From sequence record PZ445451.1: a DNA stretch of 64,000 nucleotides; one strand, written 5' to 3'. The translations under genes were made by a program, and so were the position numbers. The notes beneath the pieces are model-generated. The model was not told the DNA's origin. It made no database searches and saw only the letters and a program-made list of their open reading frames with translations. Below are positions 202 through 45,233 of the stretch, piece by piece. Position 1 is the stretch's first letter, and each line of letters starts with the position of its first letter. The DNA is from a phage.

Positions 202-229
202 TTGACAAGACAACTAAAATTAGTAAAAT
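202..229 (+). promoter_or_regulatory. sigma70-like early promoter (TTGACA-16-TAAAAT)
   Basis: Exact -35 TTGACA at 202-207, 16 bp spacer, -10 TAAAAT at 224-229, directly upstream of gene at 281. Confidence 0.5.
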
Positions 230-239
230 GTAATTCATA

Positions 240-259
240 GGGCGGCAATAGTGCCGCCC
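240..259 (+). repeat. GC-rich stem-loop (GGGCGGCA-ATAG-TGCCGCCC) in 5' leader; member of a recurring hairpin family
   Basis: 8 bp perfect stem between promoter and RBS; near-identical copy at 3478-3497. Confidence 0.55.
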
Positions 260-280
260 CTAGTAAGAGAGATTATCAAA

Positions 281-3099: not shown

Positions 3100-3111
3100 G
3101 TATCTCATAGA

Positions 3112-3132
3112 GCGGGGAAATGGTTTCCCCGC
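3112..3132 (+). repeat. stem-loop GCGGGGAAA-TGG-TTTCCCCGC in 5' leader (hairpin family)
   Basis: 9 bp stem immediately before RBS AAGAGATAAG. Confidence 0.55.
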
Positions 3133-3152
3133 CTTAAAAGAAGAGATAAGCT

Positions 3153-3438: not shown

Positions 3439-3467
3439 TTGACACTAGGCAAACAACGTAGTAAAGT
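3439..3467 (+). promoter_or_regulatory. sigma70-like early promoter (TTGACA-17-TAAAGT)
   Basis: Exact TTGACA 3439-3444. Confidence 0.5.
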
Positions 3468-3477
3468 TTATCACATA

Positions 3478-3497
3478 GGGCGGCAATAGTGCCGCTC
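3478..3497 (+). repeat. stem-loop GGGCGGCA-ATAG-TGCCGCTC (hairpin family, copy of 240-259)
   Basis: Near-identical to the hairpin at 240-259. Confidence 0.55.
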
Positions 3498-3518
3498 ATA
3501 ACAGAAGAGAAACAAATC

Positions 3519-3689
3519 ATGATCCCGACTATGTTTTATGTATCGCGCAAAGGTCACAATATTTTTTGGTCTGAAGATTTAAATGAAGCCATGACGTTTG
3601 CCCGTGATCGTGTTGCTATCGGTGGCGTTAACATTACTGTAACCGATGAAAACGGCATTGAATACTATAACGGCGACGATGAAGAGTAA
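3519..3689 (+). CDS. hypothetical protein (56 aa)
   Basis: Track ORF 3489-3689 trimmed to ATG 3519 after GAAGAGAAACAAATC RBS. Confidence 0.5.
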   Translation: MIPTMFYVSRKGHNIFWSEDLNEAMTFARDRVAIGGVNITVTDENGIEYYNGDDEE

Positions 3690-3696
3690 TTAATAA

Positions 3697-3717
3697 GGCG
3701 GGGGAGTATTCCCCGCC
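3697..3717 (+). repeat. intercistronic GC-rich stem-loop (GGCGGGGGA-GTA-TTCCCCGCC)
   Basis: 9 bp stem between stop of previous gene and RBS of next; no promoter in between. Confidence 0.5.
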
Positions 3718-3736
3718 GTCAATAAAGAGGTAAATC

Positions 3737-4807: not shown

Positions 4808-4836
4808 TTGACACCGATCCCCAATATGTTATTATT
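4808..4836 (+). promoter_or_regulatory. sigma70-like early promoter (TTGACA-17-ATTATT)
   Basis: Exact TTGACA 4808-4813. Confidence 0.45.
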
Positions 4837-4846
4837 TACCACGTAA

Positions 4847-4865
4847 GCGGGAAATGGTTTCCCGC
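4847..4865 (+). repeat. stem-loop GCGGGAAA-TGG-TTTCCCGC in 5' leader (hairpin family)
   Basis: Same core as 804-824 and 5706-5724. Confidence 0.55.
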
Positions 4866-4889
4866 CAGGTAATCAAAAAGGTAAATACT

Positions 4890-5664: not shown

Positions 5665-5693
5665 TTGACACAGGATCACCCTTATACTAATAT
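5665..5693 (+). promoter_or_regulatory. sigma70-like early promoter (TTGACA-17-TAATAT)
   Basis: Exact TTGACA 5665-5670. Confidence 0.5.
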
Positions 5694-5705
5694 GTATCCC
5701 GTAGG

Positions 5706-5724
5706 GCGGGAAATGGTTTCCCGC
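5706..5724 (+). repeat. stem-loop GCGGGAAA-TGG-TTTCCCGC in 5' leader (hairpin family)
   Basis: Identical core to 4847-4865. Confidence 0.55.
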
Positions 5725-5743
5725 TTGATATAGGAATCATACC

Positions 5744-6566: not shown

Positions 6567-6707
6567 ATGAACAACCATACCATGAAGATCATAAGGCGCT
6601 TACAACGTGTTTTAGACCGCTTATTTTTAATTTCTCAATGTAACTATCGGGCAAAAACAGCCTTTTTCTTGTCTTTCCTCTTAAATGATAATCATTCTTA
6701 TTTATAG
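6567..6707 (+). CDS. possible small protein (46 aa), not in track
   Basis: ATG 6567 after CAAGGAGCAG RBS; 3' end overlaps a Fur-box-like repeat. Confidence 0.25.
   Translation: MNNHTMKIIRRLQRVLDRLFLISQCNYRAKTAFFLSFLLNDNHSYL
6684..6700. promoter_or_regulatory. Fur-box-like motif AATGATAATCATTCTTA (direct-repeat copy 1)
   Basis: Matches the core of the enterobacterial Fur consensus GATAATGATAATCATTATC; repeated at 6742-6758. Confidence 0.35.
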
Positions 6708-6739: not shown

Positions 6740-6757
6740 ATAATGATAATCATTCTT
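6740..6757. promoter_or_regulatory. Fur-box-like motif ATAATGATAATCATT (15/15 to consensus positions 2-16)
   Basis: Exact 15-mer match to the Fur consensus core. Confidence 0.4.
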
Positions 6758-7512
6758 AACTTATGACCATCTAACCTATAAAATAATAAGTTATCTAACT
6801 AAATTAAAACTAATTATCCCACCTTTATTTATAACTTACTTTTACTATCTCATTGATAACCTTATATTAAACAACAATAACCAATATAAATCATTACTAA
6901 GCTAACTATAATCTATCTAACCCTTAAAACTATAACTATAATCTATCGAATTGTTGCACAAAGTAACTATTAAATTGTTAGTAACTTTACTAAATAATTA
7001 ATATCCTATCTATTTATGATCTAATCTTTACCTTACTATCTATTACCTAAATAACCATTTCATACAGAAATTATTTCATACAATAACTATAACAAGAAAT
7101 ATAATTCGCAAGCGTATCATTAGCAGCCTATGCCGGACACATAGGCGGCTAATAATAACGCAACTACACACCCCACATAATAACCATCACCGATAGTTAT
7201 TATTTGTGCTTATGTAGCTTGCAACAATTGCAAGCGCAACAATATACATGGTATATTGTATCCCTTACATTGTTGCGGTGCGTTATTATTAGCTAATGTT
7301 TGGAACATTGGCTATAATATAAGCTACATATAATAAGCTATACAATAATAAACATAATGAATAATGACACTGATGATCATAATGCGCCACCTTCCAGGGG
7401 GCGCTATGTGAACACAAAGAAATCTTTCTTGTCAAGAAAAATATCACCATTATTGCGCAAAATTATTTATATCTGAACAGATGATTTTTCATACTATTGC
7501 CCCCTATAGTAT

Positions 7513-7619: not shown

Positions 7620-7638
7620 GCAAATGATAATCATTATC
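7620..7638. promoter_or_regulatory. Fur-box-like motif GCAAATGATAATCATTATC (17/19 to consensus)
   Basis: TGATAATCATTATC is an exact 14-mer match to the 3' part of the Fur consensus. Confidence 0.4.
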
Positions 7639-7805: not shown

Positions 7806-7833
7806 AATGATAATGCAAATGATAATTATTCTC
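7806..7833. promoter_or_regulatory. overlapping GATAAT-hexamer array (Fur-box-like)
   Basis: AATGATAATGCAAATGATAATTATTCTC; two overlapping partial Fur-like sites. Confidence 0.3.
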
Positions 7834-19126: not shown

Positions 19127-19132
19127 CACATA

Positions 19133-19156
19133 AACCCGCTTCGGCGGGTTTTCTTG
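19133..19156 (+). terminator. rho-independent terminator
   Basis: AACCCGC-TTCG-GCGGGTT stem followed by TTCTTG. Confidence 0.65.
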
Positions 19157-23443: not shown

Positions 23444-23528
23444 GCTAATCTTCTCCTCTTCTGTTTTTCTGTAGTTTATTTGAAAAAACTGGTCTTGTCA
23501 ACAAAAAACCCGCCGAAGCGGGTTTATA

Positions 23529-25943: not shown

Positions 25944-26266
25944 CTCTCCTCAAAATCCATAAGTATAAAGATATTAACTTTACCTTCTATATTATGTTCT
26001 ACAACAAGATCTGCAAATTCTTTGTAGGCTTTTTCTTCTATTTGTTCAATGTGAGACGCTACATCTTTGTATATAGCGTCACCATCTACTTTAACAAGGA
26101 GGAATAGAGATCTTACTTCAATCTCTTTATTTTTACGGGGTAGAAAATCGACGGCTTCTTGTATACGCCAGCCGAGATACCCTGGAGTCCTTTGAATATC
26201 CTCCAAATGACTTTCTAAGATTTCCCTTCCTTTGTCTATTAAAGCCTGTTCTGTCGTTATTTTCAT
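25940..26266 (-). CDS. hypothetical protein (108 aa)
   Basis: Track ORF; ATGA overlap. Confidence 0.55.
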   Translation of the reverse strand: MKITTEQALIDKGREILESHLEDIQRTPGYLGWRIQEAVDFLPRKNKEIEVRSLFLLVKVDGDAIYKDVASHIEQIEEKAYKEFADLVVEHNIEGKVNIFILMDFEES

Positions 26267-26276
26267 CCCCTTCTCC

Positions 26277-26849
26277 TTAATGTGTTAATGAAACTGCATA
26301 ACTAAACACAGGTTCAGATATTACATCGGCTACAGTAATAAAAACGTCCTCGTCTTGCGTTGTTTCTACACGACATACAGTTACACCATTTACCACGAAT
26401 TCAACGCAATGTGGAATATCTTCACAAACGAAGGTAGTGTAAGTAACACCCAAAGCATCATACAAAGATTTAACAGTGTTTGCAAGTGCCGCAGTTTCTT
26501 CTTTTTCTGAGACAATGAATGCTGTAACAATAAGATTGTTTGCATAGTTTAGACTGTCCTCTATAGCCAATGATTTACAAGGTAGTAATGCAAAATATTT
26601 ACCTGGTTTAATCAGACCTGCTTCCCATTGATTCAAAATTGCCTGGGATGGTTTAGTAATATAAAATAGATTTTCACTTGGGTTATCAATATTACTTCTG
26701 GCGATACAACGTGAAGGATTATTAATATCAAATACATGATCAAAATCTACACAAACAGGTAAACTGAAAGGTGTAAATTTTTTACCTAATAATCCTATGG
26801 CTGATAATATGTTTGCTGTGCTTATCTTCCCGTTAAAAGCTAAACGCAT
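26277..26849 (-). CDS. hypothetical protein (190 aa)
   Basis: Track ORF. Confidence 0.6.
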   Translation of the reverse strand: MRLAFNGKISTANILSAIGLLGKKFTPFSLPVCVDFDHVFDINNPSRCIARSNIDNPSENLFYITKPSQAILNQWEAGLIKPGKYFALLPCKSLAIEDSLNYANNLIVTAFIVSEKEETAALANTVKSLYDALGVTYTTFVCEDIPHCVEFVVNGVTVCRVETTQDEDVFITVADVISEPVFSYAVSLTH

Positions 26850-26860
26850 ATTTAACTCCT

Positions 26861-27064
26861 TTAACTAGCGACCGTAACTTCCGAACTTTCTTCTTTCGTA
26901 CTGTCTACGATATGCCTGGTGGCAATATACGAGACTTGCCAGTTACCATCTGGTGTAGTCTCAATAAGTACCCTATCTACTTCGAGAAAATGCAAAAATT
27001 CCACCATCGCTCGCTTCGATAGGAATTGTTTTTTAACAGTCTCCTCAAAAGATTGAACTGCCAT
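26861..27064 (-). CDS. hypothetical protein (67 aa)
   Basis: Track ORF. Confidence 0.5.
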   Translation of the reverse strand: MAVQSFEETVKKQFLSKRAMVEFLHFLEVDRVLIETTPDGNWQVSYIATRHIVDSTKEESSEVTVAS

Positions 27065-27073
27065 GTTTCCTCC

Positions 27074-27736
27074 TTATTTAATATTCAATTTTGCACAAAG
27101 ACGTTGTACCGCTTTGGCATCGAACAAACTCCCACGAATAGTTCTCTTTCCTGATTCATTCAGATGCTTTGCAATCGTCATATATGGCGTTTTACAAGCT
27201 CTGTATGCAACTAAAGAATCTTTTAAAGAAAGCGCAAACTCTCTTGAGCGTTTTGCTTCTTCCGTTTTCGTATAGTCTGTTCTTTTGTATTTAGGGTTTG
27301 CTGCACCAAGAAGCGTTCCCTTCGCTTTTGCTACCTTAAGGCTCTTCTTAACACGATCAGATATTGCACGAGCCTCTTCTTCTGCCAGAACTGCTAAAAT
27401 ATTTATTATCATATTTTCAGCGGAGGGCATAGTTGCTATTCGTACATTAATCATCTCTAACAAGGTTGCAACAGAAGCTGTGTTACGTCCAAGACGGTCA
27501 ACCTTAGCAACAACAAGTGTAGCACCTGTTTCTTTGCAAAGATTAACAGCTTTTACAAGCTCTCTACGTTGCTTCCAATCGCCTTTACCCGAATAAAACT
27601 CTGCAAAGCTACCTACAATAGTATAATTTTCTTGTGAATCCAGGAAGCGTTGAATATCTGCTTCCTGTGATTCTATACCATACTGGTTGCCTTGTTGTTT
27701 CTTCTTAGAAAGTCGATGATATAGTACAAACTTCAT
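27074..27736 (-). CDS. serine recombinase (resolvase/invertase family)
   Basis: N-terminal YHRLS..Q catalytic-Ser region, VAKVDRLGRN resolvase motif, C-terminal HTH-like tail. Confidence 0.7.
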   Translation of the reverse strand: MKFVLYHRLSKKKQQGNQYGIESQEADIQRFLDSQENYTIVGSFAEFYSGKGDWKQRRELVKAVNLCKETGATLVVAKVDRLGRNTASVATLLEMINVRIATMPSAENMIINILAVLAEEEARAISDRVKKSLKVAKAKGTLLGAANPKYKRTDYTKTEEAKRSREFALSLKDSLVAYRACKTPYMTIAKHLNESGKRTIRGSLFDAKAVQRLCAKLNIK

Positions 27737-27793
27737 AATACCCTCCTGTTCTGTTACAGGAAGTATGCACTACCTTAATGTTAAAGTCAACAG

Positions 27794-28009
27794 TTAAGTA
27801 GTGGTAATATCATCCTCTTGAATACCAGGGTCAACTTCTGCAAAGATAGCCTCTACAGGAATTTCTTCACCTGCTATTCTAGAAAGAAGCACTGAACCAA
27901 TAGCTTTTGCGTGTTCTTCGGATTCCGCATAAACATTAGTTCCTGTGTCTTTTTTCTTAGTTTCGTTAAAATATACCAGATAGTAATTGTATGCCATTAT
28001 TCTTCCCAA
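27794..28009 (-). CDS. hypothetical protein (71 aa)
   Basis: Track ORF. Confidence 0.5.
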   Translation of the reverse strand: MGRIMAYNYYLVYFNETKKKDTGTNVYAESEEHAKAIGSVLLSRIAGEEIPVEAIFAEVDPGIQEDDITTT

Positions 28010-28248
28010 TCGTTGTTACGAGCACTTTCAAGAACCTTGACAACTTCTGCATACTCTACAGCTAAACCAGCACACACTTCAGCTTGTTTTGCAATTGCTT
28101 GTTTAAAGAACATAGCGATTGCAACACTCTGTGTTGTGTGAATGTTATCTGCTTTAGTTGATACATGAAGATCAAAATCTTCTTCATCAAAGGTGAGTTC
28201 CATAGTAACAATAAATTTCTCGGTCATAAAAATGCTCCTCTTAAACAA
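27997..28248 (-). CDS. hypothetical protein (83 aa)
   Basis: Track ORF. Confidence 0.5.
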   Translation of the reverse strand: MFKRSIFMTEKFIVTMELTFDEEDFDLHVSTKADNIHTTQSVAIAMFFKQAIAKQAEVCAGLAVEYAEVVKVLESARNNDWEE

Positions 28249-28750
28249 AATAGAAAGGTTGAGTTAAACCCAGCCTGTTTTTTGGGTCGTAGACGTACCA
28301 AGCATATGCTGTCTTATCAGTACCACCTGCAACAAAAGATGGTCGTTCAGCAAGAACAATCAAATTTGTTGGTGGATTCTGTTTATGGAATTCCCTTCGT
28401 TTAATAGACTCTAGGAACCCAAGACGCAACAAGTATATGCAAACGTCTGCTTCTTTTAAGCTCTTTTGCAAGAACTCAAGTGCAAGTCTGAATGGTGGAT
28501 TTGTGATTATAATATCCGGCTTAGTATGCCATTCGTGGTTAAAATAATCCTTCCCTTCTTCTAACTCACAATATTCTGATCCTTCTGGAAAATGTTGATA
28601 AATTGCAGCAGCAGCGCCTTTACACGGTTCTGCAAAAATAAAACCTTCTTCTTTAAGGTTATTAAAATCTATTACACTAAATAATGCATTTATACATTTT
28701 TGTGGAGTAGGATAGTAATCAGTTGGTGGACGATCATACTTATTTGCCAC
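28241..28750 (-). CDS. small DNA N6-adenine methyltransferase (phage Dam-like, NPPF motif)
   Basis: DYYPTP near N-terminus and IIITNPPF catalytic motif. Confidence 0.6.
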   Translation of the reverse strand: MANKYDRPPTDYYPTPQKCINALFSVIDFNNLKEEGFIFAEPCKGAAAAIYQHFPEGSEYCELEEGKDYFNHEWHTKPDIIITNPPFRLALEFLQKSLKEADVCIYLLRLGFLESIKRREFHKQNPPTNLIVLAERPSFVAGGTDKTAYAWYVYDPKNRLGLTQPFYFV

Positions 28751-29168
28751 TATTTAAAATCTCCTCTTTTGTGATTTCAGGGTTTTCTTCAAAAACCATA
28801 ATATCTCTTAAGAACGTTAATTCTTCCATAGATACTGGTATTGTATCTTCTTCTGTTTTTCGTTTACATAAATCGTCAAGAAAGTTTTTAACGCTTTCTG
28901 ACACATCGTAAAATTTCAACAGTTGATAATCACAGGAGAAGATCCTATCTAGTTCTAACATTCTTTCTAAGATATTTTCTGTGTTGCCGTACAACACACG
29001 AACCTCTCCGAAAGGGTTGACTAAATATTGTGAATTTCTGAACCATCCCTTTTTAGATACAGTGTAACGCTGTTCTGCTAAACTTTCAATAAAATTTTTA
29101 GCCCTTTTACAGTTTTGTTCTAAAGAGTAGTAGGCTTTTTCTACAAAGATTACAGGTACTGGTAACAT
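28740..29168 (-). CDS. hypothetical protein (142 aa)
   Basis: Track ORF. Confidence 0.55.
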   Translation of the reverse strand: MLPVPVIFVEKAYYSLEQNCKRAKNFIESLAEQRYTVSKKGWFRNSQYLVNPFGEVRVLYGNTENILERMLELDRIFSCDYQLLKFYDVSESVKNFLDDLCKRKTEEDTIPVSMEELTFLRDIMVFEENPEITKEEILNSGK

Positions 29169-40923: not shown

Positions 40924-41895
40924 TCACCATTTTGTATGGTTAGTCAAAAGTTGACGATGTTGAATCCAACCACAGAAGTTTCCACTCCACAAACGATGTT
41001 TACGATCCATATGTGTAATACCTTCTTCCCAAGAGGTAGGGAACGGAGGAATATTAATACCACCTTTCTGTTGTTTTAATCCTGACAAATCCATTTCTTT
41101 CATTGGCGTTGCCTGGTGTTCAAACGGAGATGCATGTACCTTTTGTCCAGACAGCAAACGAGAATAGATATCCAATGCTTTATCTTTGGTATCATTCAAT
41201 TTACGATAACTTACCTGAGCGCAACAAGAAGCTGAAATAGCTTTTGCTTCCTCTTCTGTCAACATTTTCTCGTTGGAGAAGGTTTCACCCAAGAAATAAC
41301 GGATCATACCAGTTTCTGGATCTCGATCACGATTAACGTAAGGTGTATGCCATTCCCCTGGGAAAAGAAGATATGGTTCAGAAGATTCATACAGTTTTTT
41401 AATTTCTTTAGCAAGAGCCTCAATAGTAGGATCTGCATCAGCATCTACGCGCAACCACAAGAAGTTTTCTAGCTCTGTAGTGGTTACTACAGTCTTCATA
41501 CGCTGGAATGGTTCTAGTAGGCGGTTTGCAACCTGTTTATGATAACCAGCAAGGGCAAACTCTTCTGCAAAACGTGCAGCACTTAGCGCAGCCAAGTCCC
41601 ACCATTCTTTTGCAGTGTAACCTGCATCAATCAGGGCATCGTGATCTGTGCCTTTATCTTGCATACCTGGTTGGTTAGCACCAAAACGATAAGGACGTGC
41701 TGGAGATTGCCGTACCATTTCAATTAGAGTTTTAACAGGGATAGCTCGACTTGATGCGGCATTACGAGAAAACAAACGATGCGTCATCAATTCAGAGTGA
41801 ATGATTCGAGGATATTCAAGTTCAAAGGTAACAATATCCTTACCTTCAGATGTTTGAGAGTGTGCAATAATTTTTGCTGAAATAGAGTTTGTCAT
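40924..41895 (-). CDS. thyX: flavin-dependent thymidylate synthase
   Basis: ThyX signature RHR..S.....S.R (HRLFSRNAASSRAIP). Confidence 0.85.
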   Translation of the reverse strand: MTNSISAKIIAHSQTSEGKDIVTFELEYPRIIHSELMTHRLFSRNAASSRAIPVKTLIEMVRQSPARPYRFGANQPGMQDKGTDHDALIDAGYTAKEWWDLAALSAARFAEEFALAGYHKQVANRLLEPFQRMKTVVTTTELENFLWLRVDADADPTIEALAKEIKKLYESSEPYLLFPGEWHTPYVNRDRDPETGMIRYFLGETFSNEKMLTEEEAKAISASCCAQVSYRKLNDTKDKALDIYSRLLSGQKVHASPFEHQATPMKEMDLSGLKQQKGGINIPPFPTSWEEGITHMDRKHRLWSGNFCGWIQHRQLLTNHTKW

Positions 41896-41904
41896 TATTT
41901 CTCC

Positions 41905-42495
41905 TTAAGGTAGTAAAATACTTTCAATTTCTTCCCACTGATTATCTAAACCAGTGATAATTACATTAGGAAGTTTCTTTAACTTTTCCAAGTATGGATC
42001 TTCGTAAATAGTGTTGAAATATATTTTCAACGTTTCATCTGGAAATAGGACAAGATTTTCAGCCCTATCGTCAATAGTTACGTCGCAAGGTAATAAGTAT
42101 TTTTCTTTTGTTGCGAAAAAGCCATTACCAGATGTTCTACTAAAGTCCACTTTATCTAAAGATCGTGTTACGTGTCTATATTTAGAACTAAGGTGTCCAC
42201 CCTTAGTGTGGCTTGCTATAGATATATTAGCTCCATTTGCAATTATACGATGAACAACATCTGTACTATTAGGTACTACTCCCATAGTATCATATAGATG
42301 TTGGTTATCCCAAAAAGAGTAAGGATCTACACCAAATTGCTTTTTAAAATCAGGAAAATATTTCGTAATATCATAATGCACAGTCTTATGTGCCTTATCA
42401 AATTTGATATTAGATCTACTTACCGCATTTAACCAACTCAACCATTCTACATCGGCAGGAGCTATTACTAAATCCCAATCACATACTAGACGCAT
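41905..42495 (-). CDS. hypothetical protein in the nucleotide-metabolism cluster (197 aa)
   Basis: Track ORF 41905-42609 trimmed to Met39 (GGAG RBS) to limit overlap with tdk. Confidence 0.5.
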   Translation of the reverse strand: MRLVCDWDLVIAPADVEWLSWLNAVSRSNIKFDKAHKTVHYDITKYFPDFKKQFGVDPYSFWDNQHLYDTMGVVPNSTDVVHRIIANGANISIASHTKGGHLSSKYRHVTRSLDKVDFSRTSGNGFFATKEKYLLPCDVTIDDRAENLVLFPDETLKIYFNTIYEDPYLEKLKKLPNVIITGLDNQWEEIESILLP

Positions 42496-43042
42496 TATTT
42501 CTCCTGTTATAACATTTTCTACACATTGTTTCGTAAATGTCTTCTCCTCCAATAACAATCTGTTCTTTAGAGTCGATAAGTCTAGCATTGAAAATAGCTT
42601 TTCTTCCACATTTACAAATGCTTTTCAATTCTGTAATTGAATCTGCTATGGCTAATAACCGTTCAGAACCTTCAAACAATTCTGTAGCAAAATCTGTTTT
42701 AAGCCCATAACAGAATACAGGAATATCGTAATTATCTACCACATCTCCAAGAATGTCAACCATATCTTTAGTTAGGAATTGTGATTCGTCCACAAATACT
42801 GCATCTACTGGATTTTCTTTAAGTTGTGTATAAATTTCCAGCATATCTTCTTTTGTTTTAACTGGTTTTGCTTCCTCTTTAATACCTATCCTAGAAGCAA
42901 TAGCACAACCAGACCTGGTATCTAAAGCTGAAGTTAAAAGAAGAACTTTCATATTTCTTTCTTTATAGTTCCAAGCTGTTTGTAGCAGATGTGTGCTTTT
43001 ACCACTGTTCATCGGACTATATCGGAAATAAAGTTTAGCCAT
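42479..43042 (-). CDS. tdk: thymidine kinase
   Basis: P-loop MNSGKST and C-terminal zinc-ribbon Cys pairs typical of type II thymidine kinases. Confidence 0.85.
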   Translation of the reverse strand: MAKLYFRYSPMNSGKSTHLLQTAWNYKERNMKVLLLTSALDTRSGCAIASRIGIKEEAKPVKTKEDMLEIYTQLKENPVDAVFVDESQFLTKDMVDILGDVVDNYDIPVFCYGLKTDFATELFEGSERLLAIADSITELKSICKCGRKAIFNARLIDSKEQIVIGGEDIYETMCRKCYNRRNNASSM

Positions 43043-43087
43043 ATTTTCTCCTCTAACGCTCCCATTTGTGGGAGCGATAATACTTTA

Positions 43088-43663
43088 TTATTTCTCTTCG
43101 TCAAGAAGAATTTTTACTATTTGTTTTCTTCGCTTACTTACTGTACTTTCTGGTGAAATTCCGCGCTTCGTTAGCCAATTTTTATCCTTTTTAGACTGGC
43201 ATAAAGCTATCGCTTCCTTCTCCGCTTTTGCTTCCCTGAATGTCATATCGTGCTTGTCAGCATAAGCCAGGATAGCGTTACACTGCTTACAAACTACACG
43301 CAGGTCGTCTTCTGTTACGTACAATAAGCGTAAAACAAAACTTGGAATATCTTCATAACAGGTTAATGTACCTGCTGCATTAATATGGTCTACTTGAAAG
43401 TCTTTCATACCTCCTGTATGTCCACACAATTCACATTTACAATTCCAAACCTGTTTCGGTTTGCCTGTTTTCTTATCTAAGACTATATTTCCATCTTTAT
43501 CCAACCTATCAGCTTTAAACCGTACAGATTGGATCTTTTTTATCTTATTCGGGTGTCGCACCCATGCTTTCCTTAAGCAACCCCTTAAATATGTATAAAA
43601 GGCTGCTTGAGTTTTCCAAGGTGTTCCATCTCCCCAAATAACTTTAGGTTCTTTATTTTCCAA
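43088..43663 (-). CDS. HNH-family endonuclease (probable homing endonuclease)
   Basis: CELCGH ... DHI ... CKQCN HNH-like zinc/His motif; free-standing inside the nucleotide-metabolism block. Confidence 0.55.
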   Translation of the reverse strand: MENKEPKVIWGDGTPWKTQAAFYTYLRGCLRKAWVRHPNKIKKIQSVRFKADRLDKDGNIVLDKKTGKPKQVWNCKCELCGHTGGMKDFQVDHINAAGTLTCYEDIPSFVLRLLYVTEDDLRVVCKQCNAILAYADKHDMTFREAKAEKEAIALCQSKKDKNWLTKRGISPESTVSKRRKQIVKILLDEEK

Positions 43664-43847
43664 TAGTGCTCACCTTTTTAGCTACATAATCTCCAGGTGG
43701 AATGTTATATTTAAAGAAAAGCATACGGTCTAAACCAGCCTTACACATGTTCTCTGGGATTGTGATTGTATATAAGAGTTTATCTCCACGTTTATTGTAT
43801 ATTTTATATACTTCACCCTCTCCGTATTGTTTACCGTGAGAAGCCAT
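43653..43847 (-). CDS. hypothetical protein (64 aa)
   Basis: Track ORF. Confidence 0.5.
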   Translation of the reverse strand: MASHGKQYGEGEVYKIYNKRGDKLLYTITIPENMCKAGLDRMLFFKYNIPPGDYVAKKVSTIGK

Positions 43848-44232
43848 CTACACTCTCCTTCAATGTTTCAATAGCATCTGCTGCTTCAATATACTTACCT
43901 TTGTACATTGCTTTTAAAGCCTTACGAACAAGATCATCGTCTGTGTATAAATCAATTAGCTGATTAGCTAACTCAATTTTTACAGGATTTTTTAAGTTAG
44001 GGTAGGCTTCATACAACATATTGTAATACTTATCACTTAATTCTTTTTCAATATGAATAACGTGAATCGCTTTGTTTAGGTTGATCACACGATCACCTTT
44101 GTTTCGACAAGCATACTTAGCTAACTTAGTGAAACAAGGAGTTGCACCAATTAGATATGCAAGTTCCAAAGGTTGCATACGCATACGTTTGTAGTGATCA
44201 CCATCAATTTGAATATCCAGTGCTGTAGTCAT
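43831..44232 (-). CDS. hypothetical protein (133 aa), possibly DUF3310-like
   Basis: Track ORF; weak resemblance recalled from memory. Confidence 0.5.
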   Translation of the reverse strand: MTTALDIQIDGDHYKRMRMQPLELAYLIGATPCFTKLAKYACRNKGDRVINLNKAIHVIHIEKELSDKYYNMLYEAYPNLKNPVKIELANQLIDLYTDDDLVRKALKAMYKGKYIEAADAIETLKESVDGFSR

Positions 44233-44241
44233 AAATCCTCC

Positions 44242-44270
44242 AAAAATAAAGGGGCTTTCGCCCCTTTTTA
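44242..44270. terminator. GGGGC-TTTC-GCCCC hairpin (bidirectional terminator type)
   Basis: Hairpin 44251-44264 flanked by A-run and T-run. Confidence 0.5.
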
Positions 44271-45233
44271 TTAAATTCCAATAACAGTGTTTACACGCTT
44301 CTCTTTGCTACGCAAATTAACACGTCCACGAGACAGGCTATTACATGATGTGCATCTTAGCACTTGGAATGTACTAACCGCTGTTGTGTAAACCTTACCA
44401 GGAACAACTTCAAGGTGCTCTTTACCGCAACGAGGACAACGAAGTTTTTCATCGTCATAGAATGCAGATACGTTAGGATGTTGTGGAATCCATGCACGAA
44501 GTTTGATGTAAAGATCTCTAAGAGAAACAACATCACCATCGTTGTATGTTTGCATACGGAAGAAGGCATGTCTATCCCCTTCACAACATGCTTTCCACAA
44601 AGGAAAACCTTCATTATCAAGTTTAAAGTTTTCTGTATCAAAATACAAACACATTTCTTTAAGCGCATTAGAAGGTAGTGCAAACTGCTTCTTAGCTGCC
44701 TTGAGTGTATCAATTACAACATAGTGTGATGGTGGCTCCATACCGTGAAAAGCAAAACGTTGGTTAATATAAGCCTTATCAAACTTAATACCATTGTGTG
44801 CGATCACAATATCTGCATCGTCAAGCAAGTGCCAGAGATCTTGACATAATTCCCAATCATCTGTATGATCTATGTCAAACAAAGGGTAATTGCTAAGGTT
44901 CTTACCTTCTACTTCCCCTGTTTCTAAATCAGCAGATGAATAGGAAAGCAAGTAACCTCGACGAATAACTTGTTCAGGTGCAATAAAGGCTTTGAAACGT
45001 GAGAAGCTATACACAATCTCCGGTGCTGTCTCTACGTCAATAATTTTAATTACTGGCCCACCTTTATCTTGCGGAGCACCTCGATGTGGTGAATTTACAC
45101 GAGCTAAGTAATCATTTACTGTGCTCTTCTTAGTAGAACTTCCCAACACCTCTTGTGCAATCTTACGCGAAGAATAACCTTGTGCTTTCATAGATACAAT
45201 CAAGGCTTTCTGTTCGTCTGTTAATTTACTCAA
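44271..45233 (-). CDS. DEDD-family 3'-5' exonuclease with N-terminal HTH and C-terminal zinc ribbon
   Basis: VIAHNGIKFDKAYINQRF exonuclease motif; C-terminal RCPRCG ... CTSCNS. Confidence 0.55.
   Translation of the reverse strand: MSKLTDEQKALIVSMKAQGYSSRKIAQEVLGSSTKKSTVNDYLARVNSPHRGAPQDKGGPVIKIIDVETAPEIVYSFSRFKAFIAPEQVIRRGYLLSYSSADLETGEVEGKNLSNYPLFDIDHTDDWELCQDLWHLLDDADIVIAHNGIKFDKAYINQRFAFHGMEPPSHYVVIDTLKAAKKQFALPSNALKEMCLYFDTENFKLDNEGFPLWKACCEGDRHAFFRMQTYNDGDVVSLRDLYIKLRAWIPQHPNVSAFYDDEKLRCPRCGKEHLEVVPGKVYTTAVSTFQVLRCTSCNSLSRGRVNLRSKEKRVNTVIGI

Follow-up and report, generated by a model that had tools for sequence, protein, structure and literature searches.

The stretch of DNA analyzed here (sequence record PZ445451.1, 64,000 nucleotides, hereafter the window) is 100% identical to MZ501100.1, the 150,425-bp genome of Escherichia phage PaulScherrer (Bas60), a member of Justusliebigvirus within the Stephanstirmvirinae, i.e., of the phi92-like coliphages, which are strictly lytic. 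Window positions equal record positions minus 87,100, and the final 675 window bases wrap onto the record start. The gene under study, bas60_0199, is annotated in MZ501100.1 as 'putative site-specific recombinase', and its labels in other records are phi92 gp053, 'DNA invertase' (as for phi92 gene_053), 'resolvase' and 'hypothetical protein'. Its identity as a recombinase is thus on record in GenBank and not new; the point of interest is a conserved recombinase in a lytic phage without a visible substrate. It is separated from its neighbours by 57 bp upstream and 9 bp downstream, and the genes around it are phage genes (N6-methyltransferase, HslV-like, PhoH, phosphatase), with no transposase among them. 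The features of the locus, all on the minus strand, are as follows.

27074..27736, minus strand: recombinase coding sequence bas60_0199, 220 amino acids plus stop, orthologue of phi92 gp053 (open reading frame list)
27302..27736, minus strand: catalytic domain and E-helix, residues 1 to approximately 145 (PF00239, alignment, AF2 model)
27707..27709, minus strand: codon (TCT) of the predicted nucleophile Ser10 (sequence and alignments to solved resolvases)
27482..27511, minus strand: VAKVDRLGRN, residues 76-85, with the D80/R81/R84 active-site cluster (sequence, alignments)
27074..27301, minus strand: linker and predicted four-helix DNA-binding module, residues approximately 146-220 (alignment, AF2)
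27742..27747, minus strand: Shine-Dalgarno sequence AGGAGG, overlapped by the right arm of the inverted repeat
27745..27760, minus strand: inverted repeat CCTGT-AACAGA-ACAGG (coding strand 27760-27745), a chance feature (sequence)
27762..27790, minus strand: predicted sigma-70-type promoter with TTGACT (27790-27785), a 17-nt spacer and CATACT (27767-27762) (promoter scan)

By its motifs and alignments, the gene encodes a genuine small serine recombinase, apparently catalytically competent, of a lineage resembling the large serine recombinases. The N-terminus MKFVLYHRLSKKKQ carries the Y-x-R-x-S motif with its serine at position 10, and the Pfam Resolvase family PF00239 covers residues 4-141 (E 8e-22, 78.3 bits against a cut-off of 23.3); the Pfam search of the window protein returned no domain besides PF00239. 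The conserved residues are Y6, R8, S10, Q24, R57, D80, R81, R84, E121 and R128, and when 32 homologues with identities as low as approximately 30% were aligned, Q24, R81, R84, E121 and R128 were invariant and Y6, R8, S10 and D80 nearly so. The family profile aligned with the Sin, Tn3 and gamma-delta resolvases and with Gin at E values of 1e-24 to 1e-19, and by this alignment the conserved residues fall on the catalytic residues Y6, R8, S10, Q19, R45, D67, R68, R71, E118 and R125 of Tn3/gamma-delta. The AF2 model (mean pLDDT 88.6) comprises a mixed alpha/beta core, the E-helix at residues 108-138, a disordered linker and four short C-terminal helices. The features that define the serine recombinase superfamily, i.e., a PF00239 score above threshold, the Ser/Asp/Arg cluster with the equivalents of E118 and R125, and a long E-helix, were all found, and the enzyme is apparently active. 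An earlier note, written from the letters of the window, had claimed a resolvase catalytic N-terminus, the motif VAKVDRLGRN and a small serine recombinase rather than a large integrase; these claims are borne out by Ser10, the PF00239 score and the alignment to solved resolvases, by the motif at 27482-27511, and by a length of 220 amino acids with full catalytic motifs, a long E-helix and a helical tail of approximately 75 amino acids.

The short C-terminal DNA-binding tail of that note stands as far as the helical module is concerned, whereas the helix-turn-helix domain HTH_7 (PF02796) of invertases and resolvases is absent: it was detected neither in the window protein (E up to 0.1) nor in any of the 32 relatives (E up to 1). 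The AF2 helices of the module span residues 162-170, 172-180, 185-194 and 207-216, and the homologue alignment revealed the motif IAxxLNxxGxxTxRG......VxRL. PF07508 ('Recombinase') was matched by 21 of the 32 relatives, over the first part of the domain only (best E 3e-7), and by the window protein itself not at E up to 1. As judged from these comparisons, the tail resembles the opening part of the 'Recombinase' domain of large serine recombinases and not the HTH_7 of Gin/Hin or Tn3. Among solved structures the top fold match was Bxb1 integrase (247 columns), followed by Sin and gamma-delta resolvase, and in NCBIfam the best match was CcrB, followed by Mpi and YneB, all of them below threshold. 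Because of the C-terminal motif, the PF07508 matches, the Bxb1 fold match and the lack of HTH_7, the lineage appears related to the large serine recombinases and to lie outside the Gin/Hin and Tn3 groups.

Comparison with the large serine recombinases (the Bxb1, phiC31 and A118 integrases and CcrB) accordingly showed likeness in fold and family match, in the N-terminal motif YxRxSxxxQ...SxxxQ and in the opening of the 'Recombinase' domain (IAxxLNxxG..T..G..W....V). However, the phage protein has 220 amino acids instead of 400-700 and approximately 75 after the E-helix, and it lacks a zinc-ribbon, a coiled coil and the greater part of the recombinase domain. With the Tn3/gamma-delta and Sin/beta-type resolvases it shares the profile alignment over the full length of catalytic domain and E-helix as well as the reaction proposed below, deletion between direct repeats; it differs from them in having no HTH_7, no multi-subsite res region (approximately 100-130 bp) beside the gene and no transposon or plasmid around it, and in a five-residue insertion after the nucleophile motif, which is typical of large serine recombinases. 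Taken together, on sequence grounds the protein fails the defining tests of the Gin/Hin invertases, the Tn3/Sin resolvases, the large serine integrases, Mpi and the IS607 transposases. It is best filed with the abundant 'recombinase family proteins' of approximately 215 amino acids. At E up to 1e-10 this family comprises 2,562 representative clusters, most of them with 210-245 amino acids and aligning end to end.

The two modules evolve at different rates. Synonymous sites are saturated between lineages (pS 0.63-0.78); between close lineages the catalytic domain shows a pN of 0.04-0.09 and a dN/dS of approximately 0.03-0.1, indicating strong purifying selection, whereas the C-terminal module has a dN/dS of 0.18-0.73 and changes 4-10 times faster. 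Within Phapecoctavirus, the dN/dS values were 0.03 for the catalytic domain and 0.73 for the DNA-binding module. Likewise, among 70 homologues, pairs with 50-70% identity in the catalytic domain have 10-50% in the C-terminus, and in some pairs catalytic domains at least 95% identical are joined to C-termini with identity down to 37%. Between iGC_PHA_EC001 and phiWec190 nucleotide similarity ends at approximately codon 145, which is the domain boundary. This pattern suggests that catalysis is maintained while DNA recognition drifts or is retargeted.

In most lineages checked, the gene seems to have its own sigma-70-type promoter. Klebsiella phage phi1_175008 carries TTGACA-N17-CATACT in the same place as the PaulScherrer promoter, and the orthologues of Phapecoctavirus and of a Vibrio phage are preceded by TTGACA-N17-TAAAGT or TAAGAT, so that a sigma-70-like promoter is predicted directly upstream in four lineages; the exception is phiWec190, where the gene starts 10 bp after the upstream open reading frame. 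In phi1_175008, a 29-bp near-perfect palindrome overlaps the -10 hexamer of this promoter. Resolvases commonly autoregulate, and both this habit and the palindrome would suit a DNA-binding regulator that does not recombine, e.g., a repressor of its own or of other early promoters. Nevertheless, we consider such a role highly improbable: the palindrome is not conserved in PaulScherrer, all catalytic residues including the nucleophile are conserved down to approximately 30% identity, and constraint is far stronger on the catalytic domain than on the DNA-binding module, which is the opposite of the pattern expected for a pure regulator.

The earlier note had also drawn attention to an inverted repeat just upstream of the start, within 27740-27765. 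The repeat is indeed present, but its significance as a site did not hold up. No mRNA hairpin would be expected from it, since the left arm falls between the -10 hexamer and the predicted start of transcription. Perfect 5-bp inverted repeats are common in the 64-kb window, with 121 having a 6-nt spacer and 1027 having spacers of 3-10 nt, and the repeat is absent from phi1_175008, whose recombinase is 78% identical. Genome-wide searches, here and below, covered the complete 150,425-bp PaulScherrer genome including the window; they revealed no second copy of the 16-nt repeat with up to 2 mismatches, and at 3 mismatches 2 other matches as compared to 0-3 in shuffled sequences. Moreover, the whole genome contains no second copy of the upstream region above 13 nt. 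The repeat was thus rejected as a recombination or operator site, being of chance frequency, not conserved and without a second copy.

Gin/Cin-type switching, which the same note had put forward as one of two possible roles, presupposes an invertible segment, and the phage genome was searched for one. The genome self-comparison, for direct and inverted repeats alike, returned only terminator hairpins and the leader hairpins of early genes and nothing involving the neighbourhood of the recombinase, which is also free of inverted repeats of at least 17 bp. Inverted-repeat pairs with arms of at least 11 nt within 5 kb numbered 317 as compared to 229-251 in shuffles, the sole outlier being a pair of identical terminators; apart from terminator hairpins, inverted-repeat pairs are at chance level throughout the genome. 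Identical 23-nt terminator hairpins with a TTCG loop are found in inverted orientation at window 19130-19152 and 23505-23527; the 4.35 kb that they enclose, with the sirtuin-like gene and the Dcm-like methyltransferase gene, are collinear throughout the related genomes. Approximately 56 near-identical Justusliebigvirus genomes are collinear over 25 kb around the recombinase gene and also over the tail-fibre cluster, where gene order accounted for an apparent split in phage J-01; tail-fibre switching was therefore rejected. The cluster lies at 19-38 kb of the record and the recombinase at 114 kb, in agreement with the note's remark that no tail-fibre genes are nearby.

The sole inversion polymorphism found is a 1.16-kb block at record 76,892-78,048, outside the window and 36 kb from the gene, which consists of three small genes and a divergent promoter region. 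It occurs in both orientations among Justusliebigvirus genomes with approximately 97% mutual identity: VEcB, PD114 and approximately eight further members of the genus carry it inverted with respect to PaulScherrer, phi92 and others, and so does Phapecoctavirus. A DNA invertase of a phage segment, Gin/Cin/Hin- or Mpi-like and possibly acting on this promoter-bearing block, would be in line with the two orientations and with the label 'DNA invertase' of PHROG 125. The block ends, however, lack inverted repeats above chance, and the junctions are located at gene boundaries with unrelated DNA at both (PaulScherrer, 226 and 202 bp; PD114, 64 and 425 bp), and at one of them the fused open reading frame bas60_0105 arose. 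Furthermore, the block segment is 93% identical between the orientation groups as compared to 97-98% within a group. Given the junctions, the inserted DNA, the fusion, the lack of end repeats and the 93% identity, the block looks like an old one-off rearrangement carried as two alleles and not like a switch, although a recombinase may have made the inversion once.

The protein itself also departs from the known invertases. It resembles Gin, Hin, Cin and Pin (of phage Mu, Salmonella, P1 and e14, respectively) in a length of approximately 190-220 amino acids and in catalytic fold and residues, and Gin and Cin are likewise phage-encoded. By contrast, phmmer matched Gin/Hin only remotely (E approximately 1e-3), the C-terminus is not an HTH_7, and there is no adjacent invertible segment, no pair of 26-bp inverted crossover sites, no nearby tail-fibre gene and no orientation isomer around the gene. 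Mpi of Bacteroides fragilis, which acts in trans on distant sites, has a similar length of approximately 200 amino acids and was matched over almost its whole length (residues 6-196 with model positions 5-197 of 203), but its model NF009949 was matched at 32.6 bits against a cut-off of 272, and the phage genome has no promoter segments flanked by inverted repeats. In view of these findings together with the genome-wide repeat counts and the collinearity of gene region and tail-fibre cluster, an invertase function appears very unlikely; from these comparisons we conclude that the enzyme is probably not a Gin/Cin-type invertase and that the upstream repeat is probably not its site.

Integration was considered as well. 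When 5,426 complete E. coli genomes were searched with window positions 26001-29000 by megablast, none matched, so that there are no integrated forms among them, and a role in integration was rejected; in this respect, too, the enzyme differs from the large serine integrases.

By tblastn, the gene was found in 162 phage records, and in 153 of them one match covers at least 80% of the protein. Identity to the PaulScherrer protein is 99-100% in all 56 Justusliebigvirus, 78% in the Klebsiella relatives and 57% in Phapecoctavirus, and more distant carriers include Vibrio phages of 110-150 kb and others. The recombinase is present in single copy in every genome that carries it. Of the Justusliebigvirus and Phapecoctavirus copies listed, only that of Schickermooser (NC_048196.1, L017:2870-3560) falls short of a full-length alignment; it has six small deletions (1, 1, 7, 1, 2 and 7 nt) in its first 260 nt and is otherwise 99.5% identical to the intact phAPEC8 gene. 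The deletions may represent either real inactivation or sequence error; a pseudogene shared with phAPEC8 was rejected, since the phAPEC8 copy is intact and only that of Schickermooser is broken. Among the GenBank records compared, MG065639, MG065645, MG065656 and MG065689 ('Campylobacter phage' A150, A145, C3 and A110a) are approximately 98% identical to these coliphages in every region compared, and the 'Campylobacter jejuni' host label of these four is probably wrong, or the isolates are contaminants.

The position of the gene differs between the genera. In Justusliebigvirus and phi1_175008 it lies between the orthologues of bas60_0200 and bas60_0198 (locus A); in Phapecoctavirus these orthologues are adjacent, 45 bp apart with a terminator hairpin (empty site at L014 8666-8710), and the recombinase is found approximately 14 kb away in the plus-strand early block. 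A third, rearranged arrangement is seen in KP13-16. The backbones of PaulScherrer and Phapecoctavirus iGC_PHA_EC001, compared over two-thirds of the latter genome, are collinear with a median protein identity of 61%, and the recombinase (57%) is among the very few displaced genes. No terminal repeats or target duplications were detected at the filled as compared to the empty site, and no conserved partner gene, e.g., for a directionality factor, was found, the small neighbouring genes not travelling with the recombinase. The recombinase is an accessory gene of the Stephanstirmvirinae.

The filled and precisely empty states of locus A, the displaced copy in the other strand block of an otherwise collinear backbone, the lack of a partner gene and the broken copy in one record would all be in accordance with a mobile cassette, selfish or relic, that is retained and at times changes its place without contributing to phage replication, like the free-standing homing endonuclease genes and the inteins of these phages. 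We regard this as improbable, as only two or three positions are occupied in more than 150 genomes, the gene is always in single copy, repeats and duplications of the kind mentioned are lacking, and catalysis is under strong purifying selection. Moreover, the 57% identity between the genera matches the backbone median of 61%, and for this reason relocation appears to be rare and inheritance vertical. The domain order is also opposite to that of IS607-type serine transposases, in which a MerR-like helix-turn-helix is N-terminal, whereas here the catalytic domain begins at residue 4 and is followed by the DNA-binding module at the C-terminus. As for other selfish elements, inteins are annotated in the DNA polymerase and the UvrD-like helicase of PaulScherrer (record 41,715-45,029 and 68,293-71,067), and an HNH endonuclease gene (L014:16450-17106) is located at positions that are not syntenic between the two genera.

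The nearest full-length cellular relatives (approximately 35% identity, approximately 215 amino acids) are encoded on small plasmids of Alphaproteobacteria, Bacteroidota and cyanobacteria. On the 7.3-kb Phaeobacter plasmid pP18_i, the homologue is located beside ParA, a ribbon-helix-helix gene and the replication initiator, and a ParA/Rep-type plasmid backbone is the usual setting of multimer-resolution systems. The plasmid proteins (Phaeobacter pP18_i, Synechococcus pIITB3_2) share length and two-module architecture with the phage protein and are found in maintenance backbones by ParA/Rep, whereas the phage gene is located among early and metabolic genes.

The function that we favour, tentatively and with less than even confidence, is a resolvase-type action at one specific site of the phage genome, comparable to plasmid multimer resolvases or to Cre/loxP. 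It is supported by the plasmid setting of the nearest full-length relatives beside ParA/Rep and by the lack of lysogens among the E. coli genomes searched; the absence of repeated or inverted sites also fits, because deletion or cyclisation needs only one site per genome. The same applies to the resolution of replication multimers, the other role put forward in the earlier note, and a lone site of this kind would not be recognizable by its sequence. We propose that the recombinase would be synthesized early by host RNA polymerase, as the sigma-70-type promoter suggests, and that a dimer would bind one specific site in the phage genome. Two copies of this site, directly repeated where replicating phage DNA is multimeric or terminally redundant, would be synapsed by a tetramer, Ser10 would cut all four strands leaving 2-nt 3' overhangs, and after a 180-degree rotation of half of the tetramer religation would yield unit-length circles. 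The pathway from dimer and tetramer via cleavage and rotation to religation is established for the serine recombinase family. As a functional analogy only, Cre/loxP of phage P1 is likewise phage-encoded, uses a single site, cyclises terminally redundant DNA and resolves multimers; Cre, however, is a tyrosine recombinase of a temperate phage-plasmid, and no lox-like site was identified in PaulScherrer. The sole published opinion on the gene is a speculative sentence in line with the function favoured here, presented without data, according to which it keeps concatemers as single genomes (PMC10282059), and no experimental work on the gene was found in the literature.

Several observations weigh against resolution at a phage site. 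The gap upstream of the gene measures only 57 bp and is taken up by the promoter. In four of six lineages (PaulScherrer, KP13-16, phiWec190 and the Vibrio phage), no res-like or dyad site (12-bp arms, up to 2 mismatches) is recognizable within approximately 600 bp, no dyad site near the gene is common to the six, and neither a run of conserved codons nor a conserved nucleotide element that could act in cis was found inside the open reading frame across genera. As the gene occupies different loci in sister genera, a site adjacent to it would have had to move along. Concatemers are the packaging substrate, and hence their late resolution would be counterproductive. A housekeeping enzyme that depends on a single conserved site would not usually have a DNA-binding module that changes, as here, 4-10 times faster than the catalytic domain, and the function of the plasmid relatives is itself inferred from neighbours only. 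The genome ends provided no usable clue to a site, either: Stephanstirmvirinae genomes have been reported to end in direct terminal repeats (PMC12695924), and the first and last 148 bp of phiWec190 (LC739539.1; L016:4600-4747 and L020:1-148) are identical, but this repeat, judged by its length and its location midway in the early-gene block, looks more like an assembly overlap than a physical terminal repeat.

Alternatively, the target may be DNA other than that of the phage, i.e., a host chromosomal element, a resident prophage, satellite or plasmid, or a co-infecting phage, which would be rearranged or broken site-specifically during early takeover, anti-defence or competition. The phage genome shows no visible substrate, the sigma-70-type promoter points to early expression, the gene is accessory in its behaviour with a variable locus, and constrained catalysis combined with a diversifying DNA-binding module is what retargeting or an arms race would be expected to yield. 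In addition, the conflict between the lytic phage ICP1 and its satellites is centred on a serine recombinase and its att site (PMC9638900). Against an external target, no candidate was identified and PADLOC gave no match. We know of no precedent for a small serine recombinase as an effector against host or rivals. Moreover, the DNA-binding part of the integrases diverges fast as well, as the DNA-binding domains of large serine recombinases are poorly conserved in general; consequently, fast evolution of the C-terminus is not specific evidence for an external target. An external target in the broad sense is thus regarded as unlikely, and slightly more so its most pointed form, an early weapon of strictly lytic phages against other DNA in which the fast-evolving module would track targets while the catalytic core stays fixed. 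An external target, if true, would mean that site-specific recombination is put to a new use in the conflicts of phages with hosts or rivals. If, on the other hand, resolvase-type action at a phage site is correct, these large lytic phages would possess a Cre-like shortcut for making or keeping unit-length circular templates, a modest insight into their replication. Apart from mechanism, screens of therapeutic phages often read 'recombinase' or 'invertase' genes as signs of lysogeny; the evidence here is that the gene is passed on as a regular part of a strictly lytic subfamily, while none of thousands of E. coli genomes holds an integrated copy.

Additional observations concern a 1.6-kb non-coding stretch of the early region. 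It contains, at window positions 7116-7293 (record 94,216-94,393), a non-coding element of approximately 178 nt, which shows approximately 80% identity across all Stephanstirmvirinae genera within divergent AT-rich DNA and often lies within approximately 1 kb of record ends. Its predicted structure consists of a hairpin and a 15-bp long-range stem (7148-7162 with 7279-7293) enclosing three hairpins, and RNAalifold on 5 sequences yielded 50 pairs, 11 of them with compensatory double changes. The element had no match in Rfam at E<1 and is a candidate for a new phage non-coding RNA or a structured origin element, i.e., for a structured RNA or single-stranded DNA. The possibility that the 15-bp inverted repeat flanking 116 bp (window 7148-7293) represents an 'inverton' was rejected, as the orientation is fixed in 133 genomes and the nested stems show compensatory changes. 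All four copies of the palindrome AATGATAAT(C/T)ATT (window 6684-6696, 6742-6754, 7623-7635 and 7818-7830; 0.04 expected by chance) are located in the same stretch and resemble the Fur-box consensus of E. coli. Finally, a family of near-identical GC-rich hairpins (CACATAGGGCGGGAAATGGTTTCCCGCC or GGGCGGCAATAGTGCCGC) occurs at window positions 221-272, 792-840, 3101-3149, 3459-3510, 3685-3733, 4834-4882 and 5693-5741, 15-25 nt upstream of the starts of small early open reading frames and without a T-tract following; some copies are 100% identical over 40-42 nt, and the hairpins may serve as leader processing or regulatory elements.

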